Origin: an uncultured virus (IMG/VR IMGVR_UViG_3300025158_000014)
Lineage: Duplodnaviria; Heunggongvirae; Uroviricota; Caudoviricetes
DNA: 64,000 nt
Direction: 5' to 3' (one strand)
Virus record (IMG/VR): IMGVR_UViG_3300025158_000014
Under the pieces are notes generated by a model that had not been told where the DNA came from, searched no databases, and saw only the letters and a program-made list of their open reading frames with translations. Both the position numbers and the translations under genes were made by a program. Below, in pieces: positions 2,541 through 55,975 of the stretch; position 1 is the first letter of the stretch, and each line of letters opens with the position of its first letter.

Positions 2541-2755
2541 TGAATAACATATTAGATCGAATTAATGATAAACTGGATGAGATGGCAAAAGGAGATTTTG
2601 CTGGATGGGTTGCTATGTATGGTGGTAAGCGCATTGAAATTACCAAAGATCAAGCAACAGATTTATATGGAGCAAAACAGCTTGCTATCAAACAGTTAAA
2701 AGTTCCCAAATCAAAACAAGGTCTTTTAGCTATAAAGCTGGGTTATGAAGAATAA
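2540..2755 (+). CDS. Small putative internal head protein
   Basis: MNNILDRINDKLDE leader; tightly coupled in a late operon. Confidence 0.55.
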   Translation: MNNILDRINDKLDEMAKGDFAGWVAMYGGKRIEITKDQATDLYGAKQLAIKQLKVPKSKQGLLAIKLGYEE

Positions 2756-3141
2756 TGAGATTTGAACGATACATAAACGAAGGTGATGGTGATTTTGACT
2801 TAAATAAACGTATCGTTTTTTCATGGAAAGGTCATAAGGTAGTTAATACCGAGCATGGTAAGCAACGCATCAAACAACGTAGTGATATTACGGACTTTCA
2901 AATGTTGACAATGTTCAAAAATGCTATTAAGAAGATTGAAAGTAAATCCGTAAAGATAGGGGAAAAAATTGTTTTTTGGTCTAAAACATTAGGACAAGCT
3001 TTTATAGCAAAGATAGATGATGTTAAGGATTTGATATTACTTACGTTCTTTCCGAGACACAAGAAACCGAGTGGAGTAAATGATCCATATCAACGAGAAG
3101 TTGTTATAGAAGGCGAACATTTAAGAATAGTGGAGATATGA
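2755..3141 (+). CDS. Putative virion-packaged protein, possible BECR/RelE-like RNase fold
   Basis: MRFERYINE leader; TEHGKQRIKQR...ILLTFF pattern. Confidence 0.45.
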   Translation: MRFERYINEGDGDFDLNKRIVFSWKGHKVVNTEHGKQRIKQRSDITDFQMLTMFKNAIKKIESKSVKIGEKIVFWSKTLGQAFIAKIDDVKDLILLTFFPRHKKPSGVNDPYQREVVIEGEHLRIVEI

Positions 3142-3845
3142 AATTAATGAGGCTTGAGCAGTATATAACCGAAAGCATTAACGATAAGGGTATTTTCAAG
3201 GCCATATTCATGGCAGGTTCGCCGGGATCAGGAAAGTCGTTTGTAAGAAAAAAATTGTCAGGTGGGTATGAACCCAGAGTCGTAAATACCGATAAATTCA
3301 CAGAATTCTTCGGGGGGTGGAATGGTTTTAGTGAGAAGATAAAACTTCTTAATAATAATCAATTATTGTTATATTTAAATTCTATGTTACCTCTTTGGAT
3401 TGACGGAACTTCTGGTAATAGAAACAATCTCATGACAAGAGAAGGTCTTTTGTCAGGGATGGGATACGATACTGGTATGATATGGGTCAATACTGACCTT
3501 GACGAAGCAGTTAAGAGGGCACAGGAGCGCGAAGCCCATGGCGGTAGACATGTTGATATCCCTTGGTTAAAAGAAACTTACGAAAAAATTCAGAAGATGA
3601 AATCATTCTATATGACTCGTTTTCAATGGTTCTTAGAGGTTGACAATAATACTGGACAATTAACTGATGAAGTGGTACAAAATCTATACTCAAAAACACT
3701 TCCATTTTTTGGGGGACCAGTGAAAAACCCACATGGGCAAGAAATTATAAATACTTTAAAAGAGATGGGTGGAAAATACCTTACGGATATGGAAGAATAT
3801 GATATGAAGTTTATTCAAAATAGAACAAAAGCGTGGTTTACGTGA
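3138..3845 (+). CDS. P-loop kinase (zeta-toxin/AAA_33-like) with capsid-targeting-like leader
   Basis: MRLEQYITE; Walker A GSPGSGKS; WIDGT; lid RAQERE. Confidence 0.75.
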   Translation: MKLMRLEQYITESINDKGIFKAIFMAGSPGSGKSFVRKKLSGGYEPRVVNTDKFTEFFGGWNGFSEKIKLLNNNQLLLYLNSMLPLWIDGTSGNRNNLMTREGLLSGMGYDTGMIWVNTDLDEAVKRAQEREAHGGRHVDIPWLKETYEKIQKMKSFYMTRFQWFLEVDNNTGQLTDEVVQNLYSKTLPFFGGPVKNPHGQEIINTLKEMGGKYLTDMEEYDMKFIQNRTKAWFT

Positions 3846-4681
3846 TGAAAAAGTTCTACGATAAATTAAATGAGGCGACAACTCTATCTTCCGGTGGATA
3901 TACTAATCCCGGTGATGGATCTGGTATTACAGGTGATGATGATCTTCCTACTGGTACGACTGTGTTTGGTGATAAAATGGTGCCTGTTGTTGTAAATAAT
4001 CGATTAACAGGTAAAACCATAAAGTATGTACCAGCCGAGGATCTAGGTCAAGGGTGGAATTATGATGAATTTGAAAATTCATCTGGTATGGGATCAATAA
4101 AAGGGTATTCAACGACACTCTTAGGTTTAAGAGAATTATTAGGGAAAAGGTTGTTTAAACATGCCCAAAAAGAGAAACTTAAGATGCAGACTGATAAATG
4201 GGATAAGCGTTCAGGGGATCAAGATGATAGCGGTACTAATCAAACAGCAAAGATCAGTGATGATGATCCTTCAAAAATAGAATTATCTAAGGGTGGAACT
4301 GAAAGTGAAATTAAGAATGAAAAACCCGAAACAAATGATCATTGGAGAGAAGTGCCTATGAAACATATTGGCGATTTAGACATAATGGAGAAAATTAACA
4401 ATTACTTAGGGGAACCCGAAGAGATGGTTAATGAGGTGGTTGCTGATGCGAATGACAGGAAATTATTAGCACAAGCTATCATAAAAGGCAAGAACACAAA
4501 GATAAGTATTAAGAGTTTAGGTGTTCAGGCGATTGTGACCAATTCTGAGGCTGAAACTATTGTAACATACCAAAAAAATGAAGATTTTACTCTAATTTTA
4601 GTGGATATTGCTGATACTTTGGGCATGGAATTTAAATTAACCAAAGATGGTGGAAAACAAGCTTTCCGTTTAATAAAATAA
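3845..4681 (+). CDS. Hypothetical protein, putative internal head protein
   Basis: MKKFYDKLNE leader, long ORF. Confidence 0.55.
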   Translation: MKKFYDKLNEATTLSSGGYTNPGDGSGITGDDDLPTGTTVFGDKMVPVVVNNRLTGKTIKYVPAEDLGQGWNYDEFENSSGMGSIKGYSTTLLGLRELLGKRLFKHAQKEKLKMQTDKWDKRSGDQDDSGTNQTAKISDDDPSKIELSKGGTESEIKNEKPETNDHWREVPMKHIGDLDIMEKINNYLGEPEEMVNEVVADANDRKLLAQAIIKGKNTKISIKSLGVQAIVTNSEAETIVTYQKNEDFTLILVDIADTLGMEFKLTKDGGKQAFRLIK

Positions 4682-4691
4682 AACCCTGTTA

Positions 4692-5033
4692 TCAATCGAA
4701 CAGGGTTTCTTTATACCTCTGACCTTCTATGATATTGTATTCTGTCACATCAAAACCTTCAATGTTGTAATATTTGAGTCTAGTCTCTGAGTTTTTGGTT
4801 AGATTCTTCTCTGTATCGCAAATATCCCAAACAATTGCACCATTATCTTTATCTGCATGAAGTCTCAAGGTTCGTCCTATACTCTGTAAGATTCTTATCT
4901 TACTTTTAAATGGTGATGCAAGTATTAAGTGTCTCAGTGATTTAATGTTTATTCCCTGCTGGAAAATCCCGTAAGTGGCGATAAGAACTATTTTCTTTGC
5001 CACGAAATCCTCCTTTACTTCTGTTGGTTTCAT
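4692..5033 (-). CDS. uvsW: UvsW helicase, C-terminal fragment (motifs V-VI)
   Basis: IATYGIFQQGINI and QSIGRTLR; alternative GTG start at 5003 with an AAGGAGG SD. Confidence 0.85.
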   Translation of the reverse strand: MKPTEVKEDFVAKKIVLIATYGIFQQGINIKSLRHLILASPFKSKIRILQSIGRTLRLHADKDNGAIVWDICDTEKNLTKNSETRLKYYNIEGFDVTEYNIIEGQRYKETLFD

Positions 5034-5050
5034 GCGTCACGTATCTCCTG

Positions 5051-6208
5051 TTATGCTAGCTTTTCCCAAGCTATATTTTGTGGACTTTTTAGTTCTTGTA
5101 AACGAACCGTGGCATTTGCACCAAATACTCTATTTGCGTATCTCAACCACAAATCCATAGTTGAGGTTTCCTTAGATCCTTTTCTTCCGATCTTCACTTT
5201 CAATACAAAACCAGTAGCTTTTTTATCAGTAATATTATATGAAATATCTTTAATTTCTAAGGGGTTGTTTGTCAGTTCTGATCTTGAAGGAACATAATAT
5301 AGACTCTTCTGTGACTGATAAAAATATGGTTTAACGGAAAAGTTTAGCAATTTTTCTATAACATGTGTGTTTGTTAATGCATTAGATATTAGAGGCAAAA
5401 CACCATTAGCAGCCGCTTCAAATACCTGCTTTGATAATGTGCTGAATTCTTGGGTATTTGCTGTTAAATGTGCCCCAAACACAGAATGTAATTCAATATT
5501 ATGCCCAACTTCGGCTAGCAATCCACTTTCTGTGTAATCTTTACTTTTGTTTTTAGCAACAACAGTATATGAATTATCCGTATTATATCTGATATTATAG
5601 TGTGGTGACCTTTTATCGGGAACATAAATTTCTCCCTTCATACTCTTGGCTTTTGCTAGAGTTGACTTCATAACCACAGTCTTCCATTTATCATATAATC
5701 CCGTACTAACTTTATCACAATAAAATTTTATACTATCAACTCCTTTGGGGTTTTCTATACCAAGATGTGAGGGTGACAAATTAGATAATGTGATACCTTG
5801 CTTCCCTTTAATCGAAATGCCGAACGCAGAAGAACCAACAAATTCAACGTCAGCTGGATTACTATCATCACCCTTGGCATTTGTACCGCCCACCCAAAAT
5901 AATTTTGGTATTGATCCGACTTTACCTGTGACTAATTTTTTTCTGGACTTTGATATTTCATAATATGTATTGAATACGTTAGCGTTATAGTTTATAGGAA
6001 GAAATTTAAGTATTTCTGAATAAACGTGATCAGGATTTTCCAATTTATTGGAATCCCACCATAAACTAGGGTCAAACTCAAGACTGGTAGGATCAAATCC
6101 TTTTAAATTCTGAGTCTTTGTAGTATATGCTAGAAGACATGCTAATTCGGTATTGTACCGTTCGGCACCAGACTTCCCACCCTCAAGTAAATATTGTTCG
6201 AATTTCAT
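5051..6208 (-). CDS. Putative PD-(D/E)XK restriction-endonuclease-like protein with capsid-targeting-like leader
   Basis: MKFEQYLLE; PADVEF...GISIK; overlaps the methyltransferase stop codon (ATGA). Confidence 0.55.
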   Translation of the reverse strand: MKFEQYLLEGGKSGAERYNTELACLLAYTTKTQNLKGFDPTSLEFDPSLWWDSNKLENPDHVYSEILKFLPINYNANVFNTYYEISKSRKKLVTGKVGSIPKLFWVGGTNAKGDDSNPADVEFVGSSAFGISIKGKQGITLSNLSPSHLGIENPKGVDSIKFYCDKVSTGLYDKWKTVVMKSTLAKAKSMKGEIYVPDKRSPHYNIRYNTDNSYTVVAKNKSKDYTESGLLAEVGHNIELHSVFGAHLTANTQEFSTLSKQVFEAAANGVLPLISNALTNTHVIEKLLNFSVKPYFYQSQKSLYYVPSRSELTNNPLEIKDISYNITDKKATGFVLKVKIGRKGSKETSTMDLWLRYANRVFGANATVRLQELKSPQNIAWEKLA

Positions 6209-7029
6209 AAGTTATCTTTATTATCCTCGTATAATTGTATAAATTCCCCTATTGTAAACGTGGGGCTTATTGCAGTTGTATCATACGAATATTTATACAA
6301 TAAATGATTTAGTTTTTTTAACTTTGAAACAATAATATCACTGTCAACTTTTAAGAATATAAATTGTGTTATTGGGGTTGCATAGCTAGATTCAATTAAC
6401 TCACCTACACGATTGCTGTATCCTGTTCTACGAATAGCATAGTTAGTGTTGTTTATATCAAATTTATTCCCCTGTGGTATGACTTGGAAATCAGATGAAT
6501 GTTTTGGTAATATTATTTTCTTTCTAGGAAAAAAATCTTTTTTCCAGACCTGAATACAACATCTAGCGTTTGTACCTGATACAAATGATCCAATATCAAC
6601 ATTCAATTGCTGATCCAAGTGAAATCTTGTGTCAAGCTGGTTAATTATATATGCTTTTTTAAACGATCTTGGTAGTATAAATGCTATAGTATCACTATAC
6701 TTTGCTGCATGATTAAAGAATTCGATAGCCAATTGCGCTCTGAATCCAAATGGCGGATTGCCGATGGTTAGAATTTTCTGACCATCTTTGGGGCGCATAT
6801 CAAAATCAAAGAAGTCCATTTTTTTTATAACATCATCATTTTCGGGTGCGATATCTAAGGCAATTAGCTTTGATGCATCTATAAAATTACATATAGAACC
6901 ATCACCAGCAGAGGGTTCTATTATGTGGTCATAATCATCCTGATTTATAAGGCTCACCAATTTCTTCGAAACATCAACATTTGTGTAATGTTTGTCTAGT
7001 TTTTCTTTTGTCTGTTTTTGTGTCATCAT
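6205..7029 (-). CDS. Amino (probably N6-adenine) DNA methyltransferase, gamma motif order
   Basis: IIEPSAGDGS (motif I) followed by IGNPPFG (motif IV). Confidence 0.85.
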   Translation of the reverse strand: MMTQKQTKEKLDKHYTNVDVSKKLVSLINQDDYDHIIEPSAGDGSICNFIDASKLIALDIAPENDDVIKKMDFFDFDMRPKDGQKILTIGNPPFGFRAQLAIEFFNHAAKYSDTIAFILPRSFKKAYIINQLDTRFHLDQQLNVDIGSFVSGTNARCCIQVWKKDFFPRKKIILPKHSSDFQVIPQGNKFDINNTNYAIRRTGYSNRVGELIESSYATPITQFIFLKVDSDIIVSKLKKLNHLLYKYSYDTTAISPTFTIGEFIQLYEDNKDNL

Positions 7030-7058
7030 TTATTATGTGTCACACCTTATATTCGTAA

Positions 7059-7862
7059 TCAATCTTTACTAATATTACTTGTAATCCAATCGTCAGCAAT
7101 ATCATCATCAATGGTGATTTCTGATGCTTTCTTGAAACTGCCATCCGTGAGAGGAATATTTTCATCAGGACTAATTTGTATCTCAGTTTCACCGAAAAAA
7201 AGTTTAATCACCTTTTCACCCTGATCATCCATACATTTACGCCATCTTTCTCTTTTTGTAGCAGAATCTTTACCACTTAAGAACTTTATTTCATGATCTT
7301 TAAGGGTCTCATCTTCCTCTAAAACCGTCTTTAATGTTTCACCCTCATCCGACACCTTACCTACAAGAATCAACACATTACCGTCCGAATTCTTAATGAT
7401 GTCCTTGATTAGACCCTGACGATATGAATTATTAAAACATATATCCTTTATTTCGTTATAATTAGCTAGACCTTGGCGATGTGAATTATCAGAGCATATA
7501 TCCTTTTTTCCTGTATGACTACTTCTCGGTGGTACTTTATATTCAATATGAACCATTTTAATGAATGCTTCTGCAACGTAACCCATCTTGGCTAATCTTG
7601 AGGCACCATATTCACGTAATACCGGACCGAGATAGGATTGAACTTGTAGACAATCCAACTGTTGAGAGGGCATTGTACCAGTAAAACCAAATCTCCATCT
7701 TGCATTAGGACACATTTGTAACAATTCATTTAATACGATTGCTTTGCAGCCATGACAATTGGATACAACTATATCATTGGCGATATAATTGTTATTATTT
7801 TTTACATGGAGATTGTATACCTTATCAGGTTTTTCAATTTCAGTTCTTTTTACGAGTCGCAT
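7059..7862 (-). CDS. uvsW: UvsW middle fragment: C-intein (35 aa), helicase motifs II-IV, Hint-like tail
   Basis: MRLVKRTEI...VYNLHV...YIANDIVVSN|CHG; FGFTGT; FLSGKD. Confidence 0.85.
   Translation of the reverse strand: MRLVKRTEIEKPDKVYNLHVKNNNNYIANDIVVSNCHGCKAIVLNELLQMCPNARWRFGFTGTMPSQQLDCLQVQSYLGPVLREYGASRLAKMGYVAEAFIKMVHIEYKVPPRSSHTGKKDICSDNSHRQGLANYNEIKDICFNNSYRQGLIKDIIKNSDGNVLILVGKVSDEGETLKTVLEEDETLKDHEIKFLSGKDSATKRERWRKCMDDQGEKVIKLFFGETEIQISPDENIPLTDGSFKKASEITIDDDIADDWITSNISKD
7758..7862 (-). mobile_element. Split intein C-half
   Basis: Block F/G pattern ending Ser-Asn, followed by +1 Cys. Confidence 0.85.
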
Positions 7863-8772
7863 TTAATTTCCTTGTGGTTTCTTCATCAAACACACCATCA
7901 GCGAGACGATGAATGTTATCTGTTATATATTCTTCTGTTAAAATGTCATAAGTGTATCCGTTAAGATAACACCATTCAGACAAACACTCTTCTTTGGTAC
8001 GTTCTACCTTCCCATTAACTCTACACATTGGTTTTAGTTCTACAATGTGTTTTGTGTTATGATTAACAAAATCCACGATATATATCTTATCTTTGCCTTC
8101 AATATTATACGGTATTCTCAAGGTTTCGTATTCATAATCTTGATTGAAGTGGTGAAAGAATGCTTCCCATGACGATCTATATTTTTTATTGTTATAATAT
8201 ACTTGCCAATGTGTATGTGAATTATGAATATTTGGTGTAAAATCTCCATTCATAATCAACTTTTTAACAGAAACAGATTGTTTATATCTTTGCTCTTTTG
8301 TAGGTATAACACCAAATGAAGGGTTGCCTTCACCCATCCTATCACAAGAAAGTTTTAACAAACGGTCATCATCTTCTTTTGTTAGTCCTTTATTCCAAGG
8401 AGATAATCCTGTTTGTATGTCTTTATTCCAAGGGTTACCAGTGTTTAAGTTGTTACGTATCTTATCACCATGTTTGTCCTGACAACCAAGACCGCCCTTT
8501 TTTGCAATATCATGCTTCATTTGTCTATAATATTTTTCCCTTATATTAGAGTCTATGTTATATAATAAATCAAACATGGTTACATATGGCGATTTTAATA
8601 TTCTTCTGTTAAGAGTAATTACATCGTTTCTTCTTTCAATAACAAGACCATTAGACAATACAGATTTCGTTGGGCTGTAGTTCTTTACTCTGAGTAATTG
8701 ATTATTTTTTTCTAATACATCGTTTAGTTTGTTTCTATGGTTGTTATGTCTTGATATTTCGTTGTTTCTCAT
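7840..8772 (-). CDS. Free-standing homing endonuclease between the split-intein halves
   Basis: NUMOD-like PWNKGLTK/GEGNPSFG repeats; YRSSWE...YIVDF...IVELKP (TnsA-like PD-(D/E)XK). Confidence 0.75.
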   Translation of the reverse strand: MRNNEISRHNNHRNKLNDVLEKNNQLLRVKNYSPTKSVLSNGLVIERRNDVITLNRRILKSPYVTMFDLLYNIDSNIREKYYRQMKHDIAKKGGLGCQDKHGDKIRNNLNTGNPWNKDIQTGLSPWNKGLTKEDDDRLLKLSCDRMGEGNPSFGVIPTKEQRYKQSVSVKKLIMNGDFTPNIHNSHTHWQVYYNNKKYRSSWEAFFHHFNQDYEYETLRIPYNIEGKDKIYIVDFVNHNTKHIVELKPMCRVNGKVERTKEECLSEWCYLNGYTYDILTEEYITDNIHRLADGVFDEETTRKLNATRKKN

Positions 8773-8805
8773 AATACATACCCTCTTGTGATGTGAACTT
8801 ATAGG

Positions 8806-8813
8806 TATTTATA
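8806..8813 (-). promoter_or_regulatory. T4-type late promoter for the endonuclease and downstream fragments
   Basis: TATAAATA on the minus strand, 34 nt upstream of the ATG at 8772. Confidence 0.65.
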
Positions 8814-8818
8814 TTTTT

Positions 8819-9112
8819 TTATTCAAACCCTATAACATCATGTTCACAAGTTAACTCATCTGCCCTGATATAACCTTTATCGGTAAGTATTTTATGATTA
8901 CCTGTAACTCTTAATATTTCACCACCATCAAATTCTAACTCATACATTCTCTCGTTAGATGATATAGTCATGTTTTCGTATACATCTTCAATTATATCTT
9001 GTTCATATTCATTAGTTTCGGTGTTATACGAAATAACGATGTCCCCTATAACCAAATCTTTTATCTTTTTATAGCCATTGTCGGTTTTTATGAGAGTATC
9101 GCCATCAACACA
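8819..9112 (-). mobile_element. Split intein N-half (97 aa)
   Basis: Block A CVDGDTLI and block B VTGNHK, then stop. Confidence 0.85.
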
Positions 9113-9772
9113 CTCATCCACAATAACCATATCCATATGTTCCATATAGTGTTTTACATTGTTTAGTGACTGCCAAGTACTGATAATTAAAGGGTTGTTC
9201 CATTCCTTCCACTTATCACCAACACGCCCAACAGTAGACATATCCACTCCATATTCTTTCATATCACCATAGAACTGAGTGACCAGACCAACAGAAGGCA
9301 CAATAATTATACCGTTTTTTGTTAAATTCTTTTCTTGTAGTGCTTTAACAACATATGATATCATTAAACTTTTACCACTGGCCGTTGCAGACCTGATGAT
9401 GCCTTTACCTGTCTTAAGACACGCAGAGATACAATCATCTTGATAGTTATATGGTTGAAATTTTAAGTTTTTGTGATATTCGGGTTTGATTCCGACAAAT
9501 AAAGACTTTACTTCGGATGAAAGTGTATAAGGTAATTCTGACCATTCTTTCTTATGATACTTAATTAACTCTAATAGTAGACCATAAGGTATAGTCCTCT
9601 TCACGGAGTCCATAAGACCAACTTTACCATCCCAGCTTCCGCACTTATATTGTAACATAAACTTATAACCGTCAACGTAATGACGGAAATATTCTTTTAC
9701 TTCGGTGAGATATGTCCAATTTTCTGTATCGATTCTGATATGAAGAGGATCATGTAATTCTAAATTAACCAC
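8819..9772 (-). CDS. uvsW: UvsW N-terminal fragment fused to an N-intein
   Basis: WDGKV, YQDDC, SATASGKS, IVDE|CVDGDTLI...TGNHKIL. Confidence 0.9.
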   Translation of the reverse strand: MVNLELHDPLHIRIDTENWTYLTEVKEYFRHYVDGYKFMLQYKCGSWDGKVGLMDSVKRTIPYGLLLELIKYHKKEWSELPYTLSSEVKSLFVGIKPEYHKNLKFQPYNYQDDCISACLKTGKGIIRSATASGKSLMISYVVKALQEKNLTKNGIIIVPSVGLVTQFYGDMKEYGVDMSTVGRVGDKWKEWNNPLIISTWQSLNNVKHYMEHMDMVIVDECVDGDTLIKTDNGYKKIKDLVIGDIVISYNTETNEYEQDIIEDVYENMTISSNERMYELEFDGGEILRVTGNHKILTDKGYIRADELTCEHDVIGFE

Positions 9773-9775
9773 TAA

Positions 9776-10258
9776 TCAATAACCGCCTTTACCGTTCTCA
9801 CAGAATAATTTCATATTCCATTGTAATTTATCCATTGCTTGCCAAATAGTCTCGAAATATTTAACCCTCATTTCCTGCTTTCTGACCAAACCTTTTAATT
9901 TTATCAGATCAGGATCTTTAGGTAAATAATATCGTTCTATTTCAGTTTTTGTTAAAGTGACCGCACCGTCTTTCAATGATATATATTTATCACCGATCAT
10001 CTGTGCCAAACGGTCTTCGACGGTAGATAACTTGGACTGTTCTTGCAAAAATTTGAGGCGAAAGTCTTTCATGTGGAACGATAGACGTTGTAATCTTTCT
10101 TGAATATTAAATTCATTAAAAGTAAGAAGATCATATACATTATATTCCTCTTCCAACTTTTTAAATATACTATCCTCGTTCAATTCTTCACGTATTTTAT
10201 TGAGGACTGCTTTAGTTTCCTCGTTATAAACACTTAACATGTGAGTGTAATCTGTCAT
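9776..10258 (-). CDS. uvsY: UvsY-like recombination mediator
   Basis: Helical protein with LTKTEIERY...DPDLIK...QWNMK, adjacent to uvsW as in T4-like phages. Confidence 0.6.
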   Translation of the reverse strand: MTDYTHMLSVYNEETKAVLNKIREELNEDSIFKKLEEEYNVYDLLTFNEFNIQERLQRLSFHMKDFRLKFLQEQSKLSTVEDRLAQMIGDKYISLKDGAVTLTKTEIERYYLPKDPDLIKLKGLVRKQEMRVKYFETIWQAMDKLQWNMKLFCENGKGGY

Positions 10259-28785: not shown

Positions 28786-29808
28786 ATGAGAAAATTATCA
28801 AGTATTCAGAAAATTATGAACATTCAACCAATTGAAGGTGCTGATCGAATTGAAGTCGCAACTGTCAATGGTTGGAAAGTTGTTGTCGGGAAAGGTGATT
28901 TTAATGTAGGCGATTTGTGCGTCTATTTTGAAATTGATTCTATTCTCCCATTAGACAAATTCCCTGAATTAGAAAATTCCAAAGGGCGCATCAAAACTAT
29001 TCGTCTTCGTGGTCAACTCTCACAGGGGTATTGCATTACTTTCGATAGATTTAAGAAAATTCTTGATGATGGTGATTTTTGGGATAAAATGGATGAAGAT
29101 ATCTCCATTGTTAACTGGAAAGTAGGGGATGATGTAACTAATTTCCTTGGTGTCGAAAAATACGAACCTCCTATTCTGTTCAAAAATGGTGATGCAAAGG
29201 GGGTCTTCCCTTCTTATATCCTCCCTAAGTCCGATGAAGATCGTATTCAATCCAACATGGATTACCTTGACAAGTTTAAAGGTCTTCCTTGGGTGGCAAC
29301 CGTCAAATATGATGGTACTTCCGCGACTTTTGGATATGACAACGATGAGTTCTTTACATGTTCACGTAATCTTAAAATCCATGATGGTGATAACGTTTAT
29401 TGGAATATTGCCCGTAAATACAAACTTCACGAAATCCCCCCTTATCTTGTTGTTCAGGGTGAAGTTGTAGGACCTGGAATCCAAAATAACCGTCTCGGAC
29501 TCAAAGATATAGAATTCCATATTTTTCGTGTTTATGACCAACTCAAAAAGAGGTATTTGTTTTATGATGAAAGAATTAAATTATGCAAATCTTATGGTAT
29601 TCCACATGTCGCATTAGACTCTCGCGGTGATCATTTTGATATGACACTCGAAAAAGTACTTGACATTGCAGAAGGAAAATATAATAATACCAAGAATGAA
29701 AGGGAAGGACTCGTATTTGAAGTGGATGGTTTGGTGAACACTGAATTTGGTGGACACTTGAGTTTTAAAGTAATAAGTAACAAATTCTTACTTAAAGGCG
29801 GGGATTAA
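28786..29808 (+). CDS. ATP-dependent RNA ligase (DRB0094/Rnl2-like)
   Basis: PIEGADRIE, YFEIDS, KYDGTS, QGEVVG, REGLV, SFKVIS. Confidence 0.9.
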   Translation: MRKLSSIQKIMNIQPIEGADRIEVATVNGWKVVVGKGDFNVGDLCVYFEIDSILPLDKFPELENSKGRIKTIRLRGQLSQGYCITFDRFKKILDDGDFWDKMDEDISIVNWKVGDDVTNFLGVEKYEPPILFKNGDAKGVFPSYILPKSDEDRIQSNMDYLDKFKGLPWVATVKYDGTSATFGYDNDEFFTCSRNLKIHDGDNVYWNIARKYKLHEIPPYLVVQGEVVGPGIQNNRLGLKDIEFHIFRVYDQLKKRYLFYDERIKLCKSYGIPHVALDSRGDHFDMTLEKVLDIAEGKYNNTKNEREGLVFEVDGLVNTEFGGHLSFKVISNKFLLKGGD

Positions 29809-51727: not shown

Positions 51728-51756
51728 AGATGATCGTTTGGAGAGAAAAAAAAATA

Positions 51757-52860
51757 ATGAAACCTTATAAGATATTCGCAGAATTAATAGAACAAGATGC
51801 ATTGGATCAATTCCATCAAGCAATGGAACAAAAGTTTGTCGTTAAAGGTGCATTGATGCCTGATGCCCATAAAGGATACTCTTTGCCTATAGGAGCCGTT
51901 GTCGCCACAAAAAACGTCATTGTTCCTTCTTGGGTTGGATATGATATCGGTTGCGGTATGTGCGCAATCCCTACTTCATTCACCCTTTCCGATATATATC
52001 AAAACGCTCAAGCGATATGGGCTAGAATTCAAGAAGCTATACCTGTTGGATTTAATCATCATGATACACACCAGACATGGGATCGATATAGCACTATCGA
52101 AAAAACTGAAACCGCTATCAATATTTTTAATTACAAAAACGGTATTGGTTGGAGACAACTCGGAACCCTTGGCGGCGGCAACCATTTCATTGAAATCGGT
52201 TCAGACGAAAATGGAGTCATATGGATCATTGTTCACTCAGGATCTCGTGGTATCGGTCATGCCATAGCTACCCATTACATGAAAATTGCAGGTGGAGGTA
52301 AAGCCCGTGAAGGATCCTATGGATTGGATGTTAATTCTCCAAACGGAAAAGACTACATCATTGATTTAAATTTTGCTCTTGAATTCGCATTAGAAAACCG
52401 ATTTAAAATTATAAATCAAGTCAGCAATGTTATAGAGGAATACTGTAAAGGGAGTTTGGACTGGTCTTGTTTTATAAACAGAAACCATAACCACGCAGAA
52501 GAAAAAGACGGTCTGTGGATTCATAGAAAAGGCGCAACCCATGCAGAAGCAGGCATGGAAGGAGTCATTCCCGGTAACATGAGAGACGGATCATTCATTG
52601 TTGTCGGAAAAGGTAACCCTGAATCACTATACTCCAGTTCCCATGGTGCCGGTCGAGTTTTAGGTCGAAACGTCGCAAAGAAGATATTAGATATAAATGA
52701 CTTCACAGAAACTATGAAAGGTATTGTAGCAAACGTAGATGATAGTACATTAGATGAATCCCCTTTTGCTTATAAAAATATTTTTGATGTCATGAAACAA
52801 CAAGAGGAATTAGTCTCAGTTAAATATTACGTCAAACCAATAATTAATGTTAAAGGATGA
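51757..52860 (+). CDS. rtcB: RtcB 3'-phosphate/5'-OH RNA ligase
   Basis: MPDAH, DIGCGM, GTLGGGNHFIE, HSGSRG, HRKGAT, HGAGR, DESP..YK. Confidence 0.95.
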   Translation: MKPYKIFAELIEQDALDQFHQAMEQKFVVKGALMPDAHKGYSLPIGAVVATKNVIVPSWVGYDIGCGMCAIPTSFTLSDIYQNAQAIWARIQEAIPVGFNHHDTHQTWDRYSTIEKTETAINIFNYKNGIGWRQLGTLGGGNHFIEIGSDENGVIWIIVHSGSRGIGHAIATHYMKIAGGGKAREGSYGLDVNSPNGKDYIIDLNFALEFALENRFKIINQVSNVIEEYCKGSLDWSCFINRNHNHAEEKDGLWIHRKGATHAEAGMEGVIPGNMRDGSFIVVGKGNPESLYSSSHGAGRVLGRNVAKKILDINDFTETMKGIVANVDDSTLDESPFAYKNIFDVMKQQEELVSVKYYVKPIINVKG

Positions 52861-54998: not shown

Positions 54999-55247
54999 TT
55001 AACCTTTTACTTCTTTTAAGATACAGTCGATACTGGAATACAGATCATCATTTGAGACACCAAGTGAATCCAAATATTCCATCCAGTTGAGTACCTCGTG
55101 AAGTTGCTCGTACATTTCTGGTGCCACGGATTCTATTCTTTTTGTCTTGGCTTCTATGCCGCAGTTGCAAGGCAGGTGAGGATATAGAGATCCTGTTTTG
55201 TTTTTGAGAATGTTACAAGTTGGTTTGTGTTCATTTATTATGTTCAT
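54999..55247 (-). CDS. Hypothetical protein
   Basis: Coupled to the methyltransferase stop codon. Confidence 0.5.
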   Translation of the reverse strand: MNIINEHKPTCNILKNKTGSLYPHLPCNCGIEAKTKRIESVAPEMYEQLHEVLNWMEYLDSLGVSNDDLYSSIDCILKEVKG

Positions 55248-55975
55248 TTATTTTGAATTCTTTCTTTGGCTGTATTGAAATAGGTTTCGTCAAGTTCAAT
55301 TCCTATGAATTTACGATTAAGGTGTTTACAAGCAAGACCTGTTGTTCCACTCCCCATTGTTGAGTCTAAAACGGTTTGTTGTTCTAGTGTGTATGTTTTT
55401 ATGAGGTATTTCATAAGCTCAAGAGGTTTTTGTGTTGGGTGAAAACCTTTACGATCTTGTTTGAACTTTTTGATGGATTTTGGGTATCTGATTCCGTTGT
55501 TTTCTTTATGTTGAGATTTACCAGATCCGTAAACTTCACCAATGGTTGCATCATCTTGAGCCATGAATGATTTGTAAGGGTCGCCTTTTTCCATTTGGGG
55601 AAAATACCGTCCTCTTTTTTTAGAAAATACTAATATTTGTTCATGGTTTTTCATGGGTTGGTGTTTTGCTAATAGAGGATTCATACCTTGGGGGTTTTCC
55701 CATATCCATTCATATTTGAACCATTCAGGATTTGACATGACAAGGTGAGAAGAAAATGGTTGTGTGGCGGTTAGTACAATATTACCATCATCCATAATGA
55801 TACGTTTATATTGAGTCCACATGTGTTCTATATCAATGACTGAATCCCATTTACAGGCTGTAACTCCATAGGGTAGGTCTGTTAAGATCAGATCAATAGA
55901 TTTATCTGGTATGTTTTTCATGACGTCCAGACAGTCTCCATGTATAAGTGTGACAGGGTTTTGTATCAGGTTCAA
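55244..55975 (-). CDS. Beta-class N6A/N4C DNA methyltransferase
   Basis: TDLPYG, HPTQKP, VLDSTMGSGTTG. Confidence 0.9.
   Translation of the reverse strand: MNLIQNPVTLIHGDCLDVMKNIPDKSIDLILTDLPYGVTACKWDSVIDIEHMWTQYKRIIMDDGNIVLTATQPFSSHLVMSNPEWFKYEWIWENPQGMNPLLAKHQPMKNHEQILVFSKKRGRYFPQMEKGDPYKSFMAQDDATIGEVYGSGKSQHKENNGIRYPKSIKKFKQDRKGFHPTQKPLELMKYLIKTYTLEQQTVLDSTMGSGTTGLACKHLNRKFIGIELDETYFNTAKERIQNK

Follow-up and report, generated by a model that had tools for sequence, protein, structure and literature searches.

How is a helicase made from a gene that is interrupted twice, with a complete intein at one interruption and none at the other? The window, a stretch of 64,000 nucleotides from an uncultured virus (IMG/VR IMGVR_UViG_3300025158_000014), poses this question on its minus strand, where uvsW is divided among three open reading frames (ORFs) in the order piece 1, endonuclease, piece 2, methylase, 385-aa ORF, piece 3.

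Layout of the split uvsW locus

Piece 1 (8819..9772) runs from the N-terminal domain to motif II and ends in a 97-aa N-intein, whose first residue is Cys 9112 (Pfam UvsW_N, ResIII and Hint; TIGR01445 above cut-off). It is followed by a free-standing TnsA-like/NUMOD3 endonuclease (7840..8772; Pfam, PHROG) and by piece 2 (7059..7862, 267 aa), composed of a 35-aa C-intein (SN-C junction, +1 Cys 7757; TIGR01443 above cut-off), a helicase core (PHROG 9690) and a C-terminal tail. An imperfect 57-nt tandem duplication (7392..7505), absent from 21 other aligned homologues, adds 19 aa to piece 2. Joint 1 thus carries a complete split intein, with C1, TxxH, SN-C, an endonuclease between the live halves, and both N- and C-terminal NCBIfam intein models above cut-off, in agreement with the preliminary description, which had UvsW assembled from three gene products and trans-spliced at this joint. 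On L001, a contig of the same phage, 16 nt are missing in piece 1 relative to window positions ~9657-9672. In L009, the nearest relative, uvsW carries a further intein at motif I (L009:1527-3485), which also bears an endonuclease.

Joint 2 is of another kind. Helicase similarity extends to RERWRKCMDDQGE (~7215) and starts again at KKIVLIATYG (~4997), 2.2 kb downstream; piece 2 covers the PHROG 9690 profile to position 215 and piece 3 covers it from position 210, confirming the break and resumption first seen in the translations. Between them lie the 51-aa tail (7062..7214), an amino-methyltransferase of 274 aa (6205..7029; EPSAGDG, NPPF) and a PD-(D/E)XK-like nuclease candidate of 385 aa (5051..6208), whose start overlaps the methylase stop (ATGA). 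Piece 3 (4692..5033, 113 aa) provides motifs V-VI, is in frame over its whole length (Helicase_C; alignment), and ends at a terminator-like hairpin between convergent genes (4680..4709). Sigma-70 sites showed no excess over shuffles. The same arrangement is present on five further contigs (four from IMG/VR, one from JGI), four of which were compared (99.8-100% over 9-12.7 kb); its repetition indicates that it is not an assembly error. P0011, an uninterrupted relative, is continuous across the joint 2 site; its alignment with T4 UvsW (2OCA, E 2e-33) locates the split in the short connection from a RecA2 helix to the strand preceding motif V.

The N-terminus of piece 3 required a correction. A GTG at 5003, 5 nt behind an AAGGAGG (5015-5009), had been taken as the start, with the upstream leader as optional. 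The motif is indeed present ahead of the piece 3 core. However, the leader MKPTEVKEDFVA (4998..5033), an N-terminal extension recognized by alignment and leader comparison, has an MKP-like or MAxI counterpart at 45 of 45 distinct junctions, a count that shows presence rather than rarity since our script sought MKP/MAxI starts. Because the leader is kept at all junctions, conservation identifies ATG 5033, which has an AGGAG (5049-5045) 11 nt upstream, as the start of piece 3, and not GTG 5003. AAGGAGG also recurs within other leaders with no start codon behind it.

A Hint-derived tail and a widespread element

The tail is of Hint ancestry. HHalign aligned it with five UvsW N-inteins at 95.8% (E 6.8e-9, score 45.9, against 18.9 for the best of 40 shuffles), and fold searches with the tail model returned Hint folds almost exclusively, covering one lobe only and with no single high-Z match. 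The alignment is confined to N-intein residues 54-95, with the TGNH of the tail opposite non-conserved residues. The tail has no block A Cys/Ser and no block B TxxH, and piece 3 has no (H/S)N-C/S/T junction; N[CST] occurs in one of 41 distinct leaders, is not kept in its sister, and family alignments of tail and leader contain no conserved Cys, Ser, His or Asn. Pfam and PDB sequences gave no match to the tail, and matches to PHROG 643 (E 0.014) and to Enterocloster phages were judged to be chance. Profile and fold evidence identify the tail as an intein fragment, the N2 or C-terminal lobe of a split N-intein, stripped of catalytic residues. With neither a catalytic lobe nor a C-intein core left, joint 2 would not splice. 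The earlier reading of joint 2 as a Hint-like remnant devoid of splicing residues therefore stands, with a tail of 51 rather than 50 aa.

The tail and leader are conserved as a family. Four homologues of 54-68% identity retain the tail, and a tail profile search returned 78 clusters at 50% identity, 77 of them with a C-terminal match, mostly in UvsW fragments; the remaining one lies inside a gyrase intein. In 118 of 120 longer proteins the C-terminus lies no more than 11 residues from the tail; the other two are in-frame fusions retaining both tail and leader. A DNA pattern yielded 86 viral loci, brought to 89 by three more; 73 have piece 3 in reach and reduce to the 45 distinct junction contexts, so that junction counts omit the other 16 (12 with <700 nt downstream). 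A pattern search of a genome collection gave two matches, neither being a UvsW tail. The 41 distinct leaders, of varying length, comprise 33 MKP-like and eight MAxI types. Cultured Vibrio phages have the same tail, an MKPTKVV start and a 4-nt overlap, with cargo absent. In having C- and N-terminal extensions that are conserved around one constant split position, the family resembles MobA-type elements.

The element is spread patchily over the UvsW tree, with at least five changes between whole and split on well-supported branches of 74 helicase cores; the split P0005 and the whole P0011 share 84.6% identity. L020 and the 98% identical L034 differ by a 1.04-kb block bringing an HNH-like gene, a new leader, a hairpin and a gap. 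We also observed that uvsW, once split, has been entered again by a second element (L020:7042-8083, L040:294-400); in L040, a remnant of the earlier leader precedes the new one.

Exchangeable cargo and stop-led gaps

The cargo at joint 2 is exchangeable. Spacers measure between -20 and 2025 nt, are unrelated in content, and fall into 15 HNH-like, eight GIY-YIG-like, six with one unrelated gene, three other, 12 short or empty and one methylase/nuclease context, the present phage, these classes being assigned by motif with a matching Pfam at E<=0.05 for seven of 30 cargo ORFs. The spacers of L020, L031, L034, L039, L040 and L048 hold a conserved gene of 262-279 aa with a terminator and a weak tail-sheath domain match.

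In the window, no homing endonuclease was found in the joint 2 spacer, which instead holds methylase and restriction endonuclease-like ORFs. The methylase matches PADLOC type II models (MTase_II, E 6e-29) and PHROG 5172 and 799, as a type II restriction-modification (R-M) methyltransferase does. The 385-aa ORF has an E..PAD..SxK motif invariant in five homologues and an ESM Atlas lead (0.95 to a cluster with 19% RE_HaeIII), with no match in Pfam, PHROG, NCBIfam or PADLOC, nor among cultured phages. The preliminary description had this R-M-like cassette sit inside the gene as a homing endonuclease would. The presence of the pair is confirmed, but as an explanation of the split it finds no support: it occurs in one of 45 contexts, and the same split and tail accompany other or no cargo in the 44 others; comparison of the junctions thus marks it as late cargo and not as the cause. 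Several window ORFs (2755-4681, 5051-6208) begin with a MxFxxYxxE leader. This leader, or its MxFExYLxE form, is presumably a mark of head-packaged proteins. The window also strongly avoids certain motifs (CCWGG, 3 seen vs 52 expected; GGCC, 11 vs 47) and encodes a Mom-like gene (17456) and a second methylase (55244-55975).

In relatives, the coding sequence of piece 3 is often broken at motif V, which is in frame in 15 contexts, carries one extra T in five and is interrupted by a gap of 4-17 nt in 25. The gaps (4, 6, 7, 11 or 17 nt; e.g. L009:5957-6005) lie between the Tyr/Ser and Gly codons, and the extra T two codons further on. A stop opens all 12 distinct gap strings (25 contexts), directly after the take-off codon. 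The landing triplet matches the take-off codon fully in two of 14 take-off/gap types, as in L029 and L035 (TCG for both), and at two or more positions in 12 of 14; for gaps of at least 6 nt this holds for 10 of 11, against a chance of 0.32 each, the sequences being related. A hairpin of 10-13 bp (-14.9 to -23.1 kcal/mol) ends at the take-off codon in 25 of 25 gapped contexts, whereas in-frame alleles form only a -2.8 to -11.2 kcal/mol hairpin at that site. Compensatory changes, counted in two register groups totalling 18 sequences, amounted to 14 cells in the group of ten (0 of 500 shuffles as high) and four in the group of eight (1 of 500 shuffles); RNAalifold gave no consensus over 22 ungapped hairpins, because stems differ in register. 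Of 30 listed sequences, 27 have an open frame past the break and retain motif VI; two leave the contig and one (L058) is truncated.

Taken together, these features suggest that ribosomes cross the gaps by a hop pushed by the 5' hairpin, while a +1 shift is possible for 4-nt gaps. In L016, L046, L058, L072 and L080, the extra T sits at ACC-TTT-C/T with a moderate hairpin and always with GIY-YIG-like cargo, making them candidates for +1 frameshifting. Re-initiation and readthrough were rejected as general answers, an in-frame stop lying directly ahead of the resumed frame in L014, L018, L024, L030 and L056. All 23 endonuclease-bearing contexts are altered at motif V (14 by a gap, five by an extra T, four by changed codons), as expected if this site is the endonuclease target. 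By contrast, piece 3 of the window has no coding gap: its hairpin at the same site (4975..5003) is weak (-10.3 kcal/mol, z -2.6) and no gap follows at 4971/4970. Its 3' arm is shared with L009, where a GIY-YIG gene and a 7-nt gap are present, and synonymous divergence in the leader is low (0.36 over 21 codons). Loss of the gap in the window's lineage is plausible, the tree giving no order of events.

We consider it fairly probable that an endonuclease-driven mobile element split uvsW in the short loop between the RecA2 helix and the strand ahead of motif V, giving the upstream piece a C-terminal extension and the downstream piece a short N-terminal one. The former would be the N2 docking lobe of a split N-intein that lost its splicing parts; the pieces would be translated separately and assemble non-covalently, with tail and leader as a clasp. 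The helicase of this phage would then consist of trans-spliced pieces 1-2 and a non-covalent piece 3, the element's endonuclease having probably been lost, with the methylase/nuclease pair now in the spacer, the hairpin weakened and the stop-led gap gone. Tails are acidic and leaders basic (median charges -3 and +2), the window's own leader not being basic. The predicted complex between the tail and residues 1-32 of piece 3 scored 0.40, against 0.07 for the best control; at such scores a pass is wrong in most cases unless the complex was already probable (at <=0.60 lie 18 of the 157 solved complexes and both mismatches that passed). Relaxed selection, which would have spoken against a three-piece UvsW, was not seen in piece 3: pN/pS between window and L009 is 0.167/0.786 for piece 3 and 0.163/0.756 for the core, indicating equal constraint and purifying selection on piece 3, while the tail (0.342/0.466) is less constrained than the core. 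A clasp is most likely on this sequence and model evidence; of the joint as first described, the Hint origin of its tail is borne out, and binding is weakly indicated.

Other readings were weighed against this assembly model. The tail may be a self-folding Hint-derived appendage that stabilizes piece 2 or aids the holoenzyme, binding occurring through the helicase core and the leader serving translation as a start or nascent-peptide hop signal. In its favour, the predicted structure of the tail alone is confident, the leader is left unplaced in the model of a natural tail-leader fusion, leaders come in two types and several lengths, and NrdA tail deletions retained binding and lost activity; yet the leader start persists in gap-free in-frame alleles, Vibrio phages included, and the opposite charges and the weak pass of the complex prediction favour contact between the two. 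We find this reading unlikely. That uvsW is decaying, with piece 3 unused, would fit the 19-aa duplication and the frame breaks in 30 of 45 relatives, but with purifying selection on piece 3, motif VI preserved past the break and breaks at a single spot, each beginning with a stop, it is very improbable. We give equally little credence to joining at the RNA level or by an additional kind of protein ligation: relatives have strong RNA hairpins, and homologues of RNA ligase and RtcB are encoded in the window (28786-29808 and 51730-52860), but Rfam gave no match in 4400-10000, the spacers differ in length and content, and tail and leader lack conserved Cys, Ser, His or Asn.

In this lineage, the methylase/nuclease pair might itself be the homing engine, the nuclease cutting unmethylated rival uvsW and the methylase conferring self-immunity, which would make the gap dispensable. 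The coupled ORFs do fill the slot where L009 has its endonuclease and gap, the window's piece 3 is unbroken, its hairpin is weak and has the 3' arm codons of L009, and in another phage a 37% identical methylase relative adjoins another nuclease-like ORF between topoisomerase genes. Against this, the pair is found once in 45 contexts, a DNA-context search for four nuclease homologues returned only this phage, the nuclease is a candidate by its sequence, and it begins, like many neighbours, with the MxFExYLxE leader; we judge the proposal improbable. A wider conjecture, which we also hold to be rather unlikely though less so than these alternatives, is that dead half-inteins are the general clasp of gene-splitting elements, T4 gp39/gp60 extensions included; the large uvsW family would protect its target by codon changes, by +1 shifts at ACC-UUU or by 4-17 nt hops that a 5' hairpin drives and that land loosely, and here in a fourth way, the methylase/nuclease pair having taken the place of the endonuclease and removed the need for a hop.

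Relation to known gene-splitting systems

The closest parallel is the MobA-type element of T4 gene 39/mobA/gene 60, as far as the accessible parts of its descriptions go (Manning & Atkins, bioRxiv 10.1101/2022.08.31.505936; Xin et al. PMC11461880): a C-terminal extension (~44 aa in T4), an exchangeable HNH/GIY-YIG endonuclease, an N-terminal extension, a replaced homology region, a recoding signal at the conserved target, secondary fusions, and loss of endonuclease and bypass with tails kept. The uvsW element differs in its host gene, which is not a topoisomerase large subunit; in its intein-derived tail, the MobA extension being called unique in those parts; in gaps of 4-17 rather than 20-50 nt, a hairpin 5' of the take-off codon and a mostly near-cognate landing; and, in the window, in a joint 2 devoid of gap and homing endonuclease. 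Neither uvsW nor helicase is mentioned in the portion of the Manning & Atkins text available (10.1101/2022.08.31.505936). Bypass of gene 60 (Wills et al. 10.1101/2024.12.09.627546, seen in part) offers an analogy for the hop; the family adds about two dozen natural minimal bypass candidates to one well-studied phage case, and its 4-17 nt gaps allow the idea of a hairpin behind the ribosome to be tested. The tail aligned weakly with the T4 gp39 extension (L100:3778-3927; 33.6%, score 21.3 vs 16.0); T4 gp60 begins with MKFVKID, resembling a C-intein start, and the T4 structure paper, in the part available, leaves inteins unmentioned.

Aeh1 nrdA-a/mobE/nrdA-b likewise encodes a split enzyme that assembles non-covalently and whose tails derive from the element; its authors speculated, in the part of the paper available, that these tails could be degenerate intein remnants (Crona et al. 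PMC3045599). The NrdA-a tail does not match the uvsW tail profile, whereas the intein origin of the uvsW tail tested positive, bringing sequence and structure evidence to this 2011 speculation that tails of endonuclease-split phage enzymes derive from inteins. Joint 1 is exactly of the type of the fractured genes with split inteins, and joint 2 keeps their layout of N-intein part, endonuclease and downstream ORF; uvsW is not named among the hosts in the accessible part of that report (Dassa et al. PMC2677866). Joint 2 differs from this type in missing block A, TxxH, the C-terminal Asn and the +1 nucleophile.

We take residues 52-99 to be the boundaries of the acidic lobe of Npu DnaE. The tail superposes on this lobe, the first to capture the C-intein in the capture-and-collapse mechanism, as given in the part of the report available (PMC11923092). 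Joint 2 differs in that it keeps this lobe with no more than one partner strand and does not collapse into an active site. The clasp could be tested with two short peptides and with the cultured Vibrio phages having the same split, and a heterodimer tag of 50+10 residues could serve protein engineering. With a methylase ORF next to, and coupled with, a PD-(D/E)XK-like one, the spacer resembles a type II R-M system, from which it differs in that the nuclease candidate matches no family and is known here by motif and Atlas lead. We found no report of the uvsW element in the literature searched, outside which lay subscription papers and bioRxiv supplements (the Manning & Atkins tables) that could mention it. 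For annotation, split uvsW helicases resemble pseudogenes but are not. Compared with all these systems, what appears new in the window is that a single gene contains one live split intein and one dead one, together with R-M-like cargo and an apparent decay of the hop signal.
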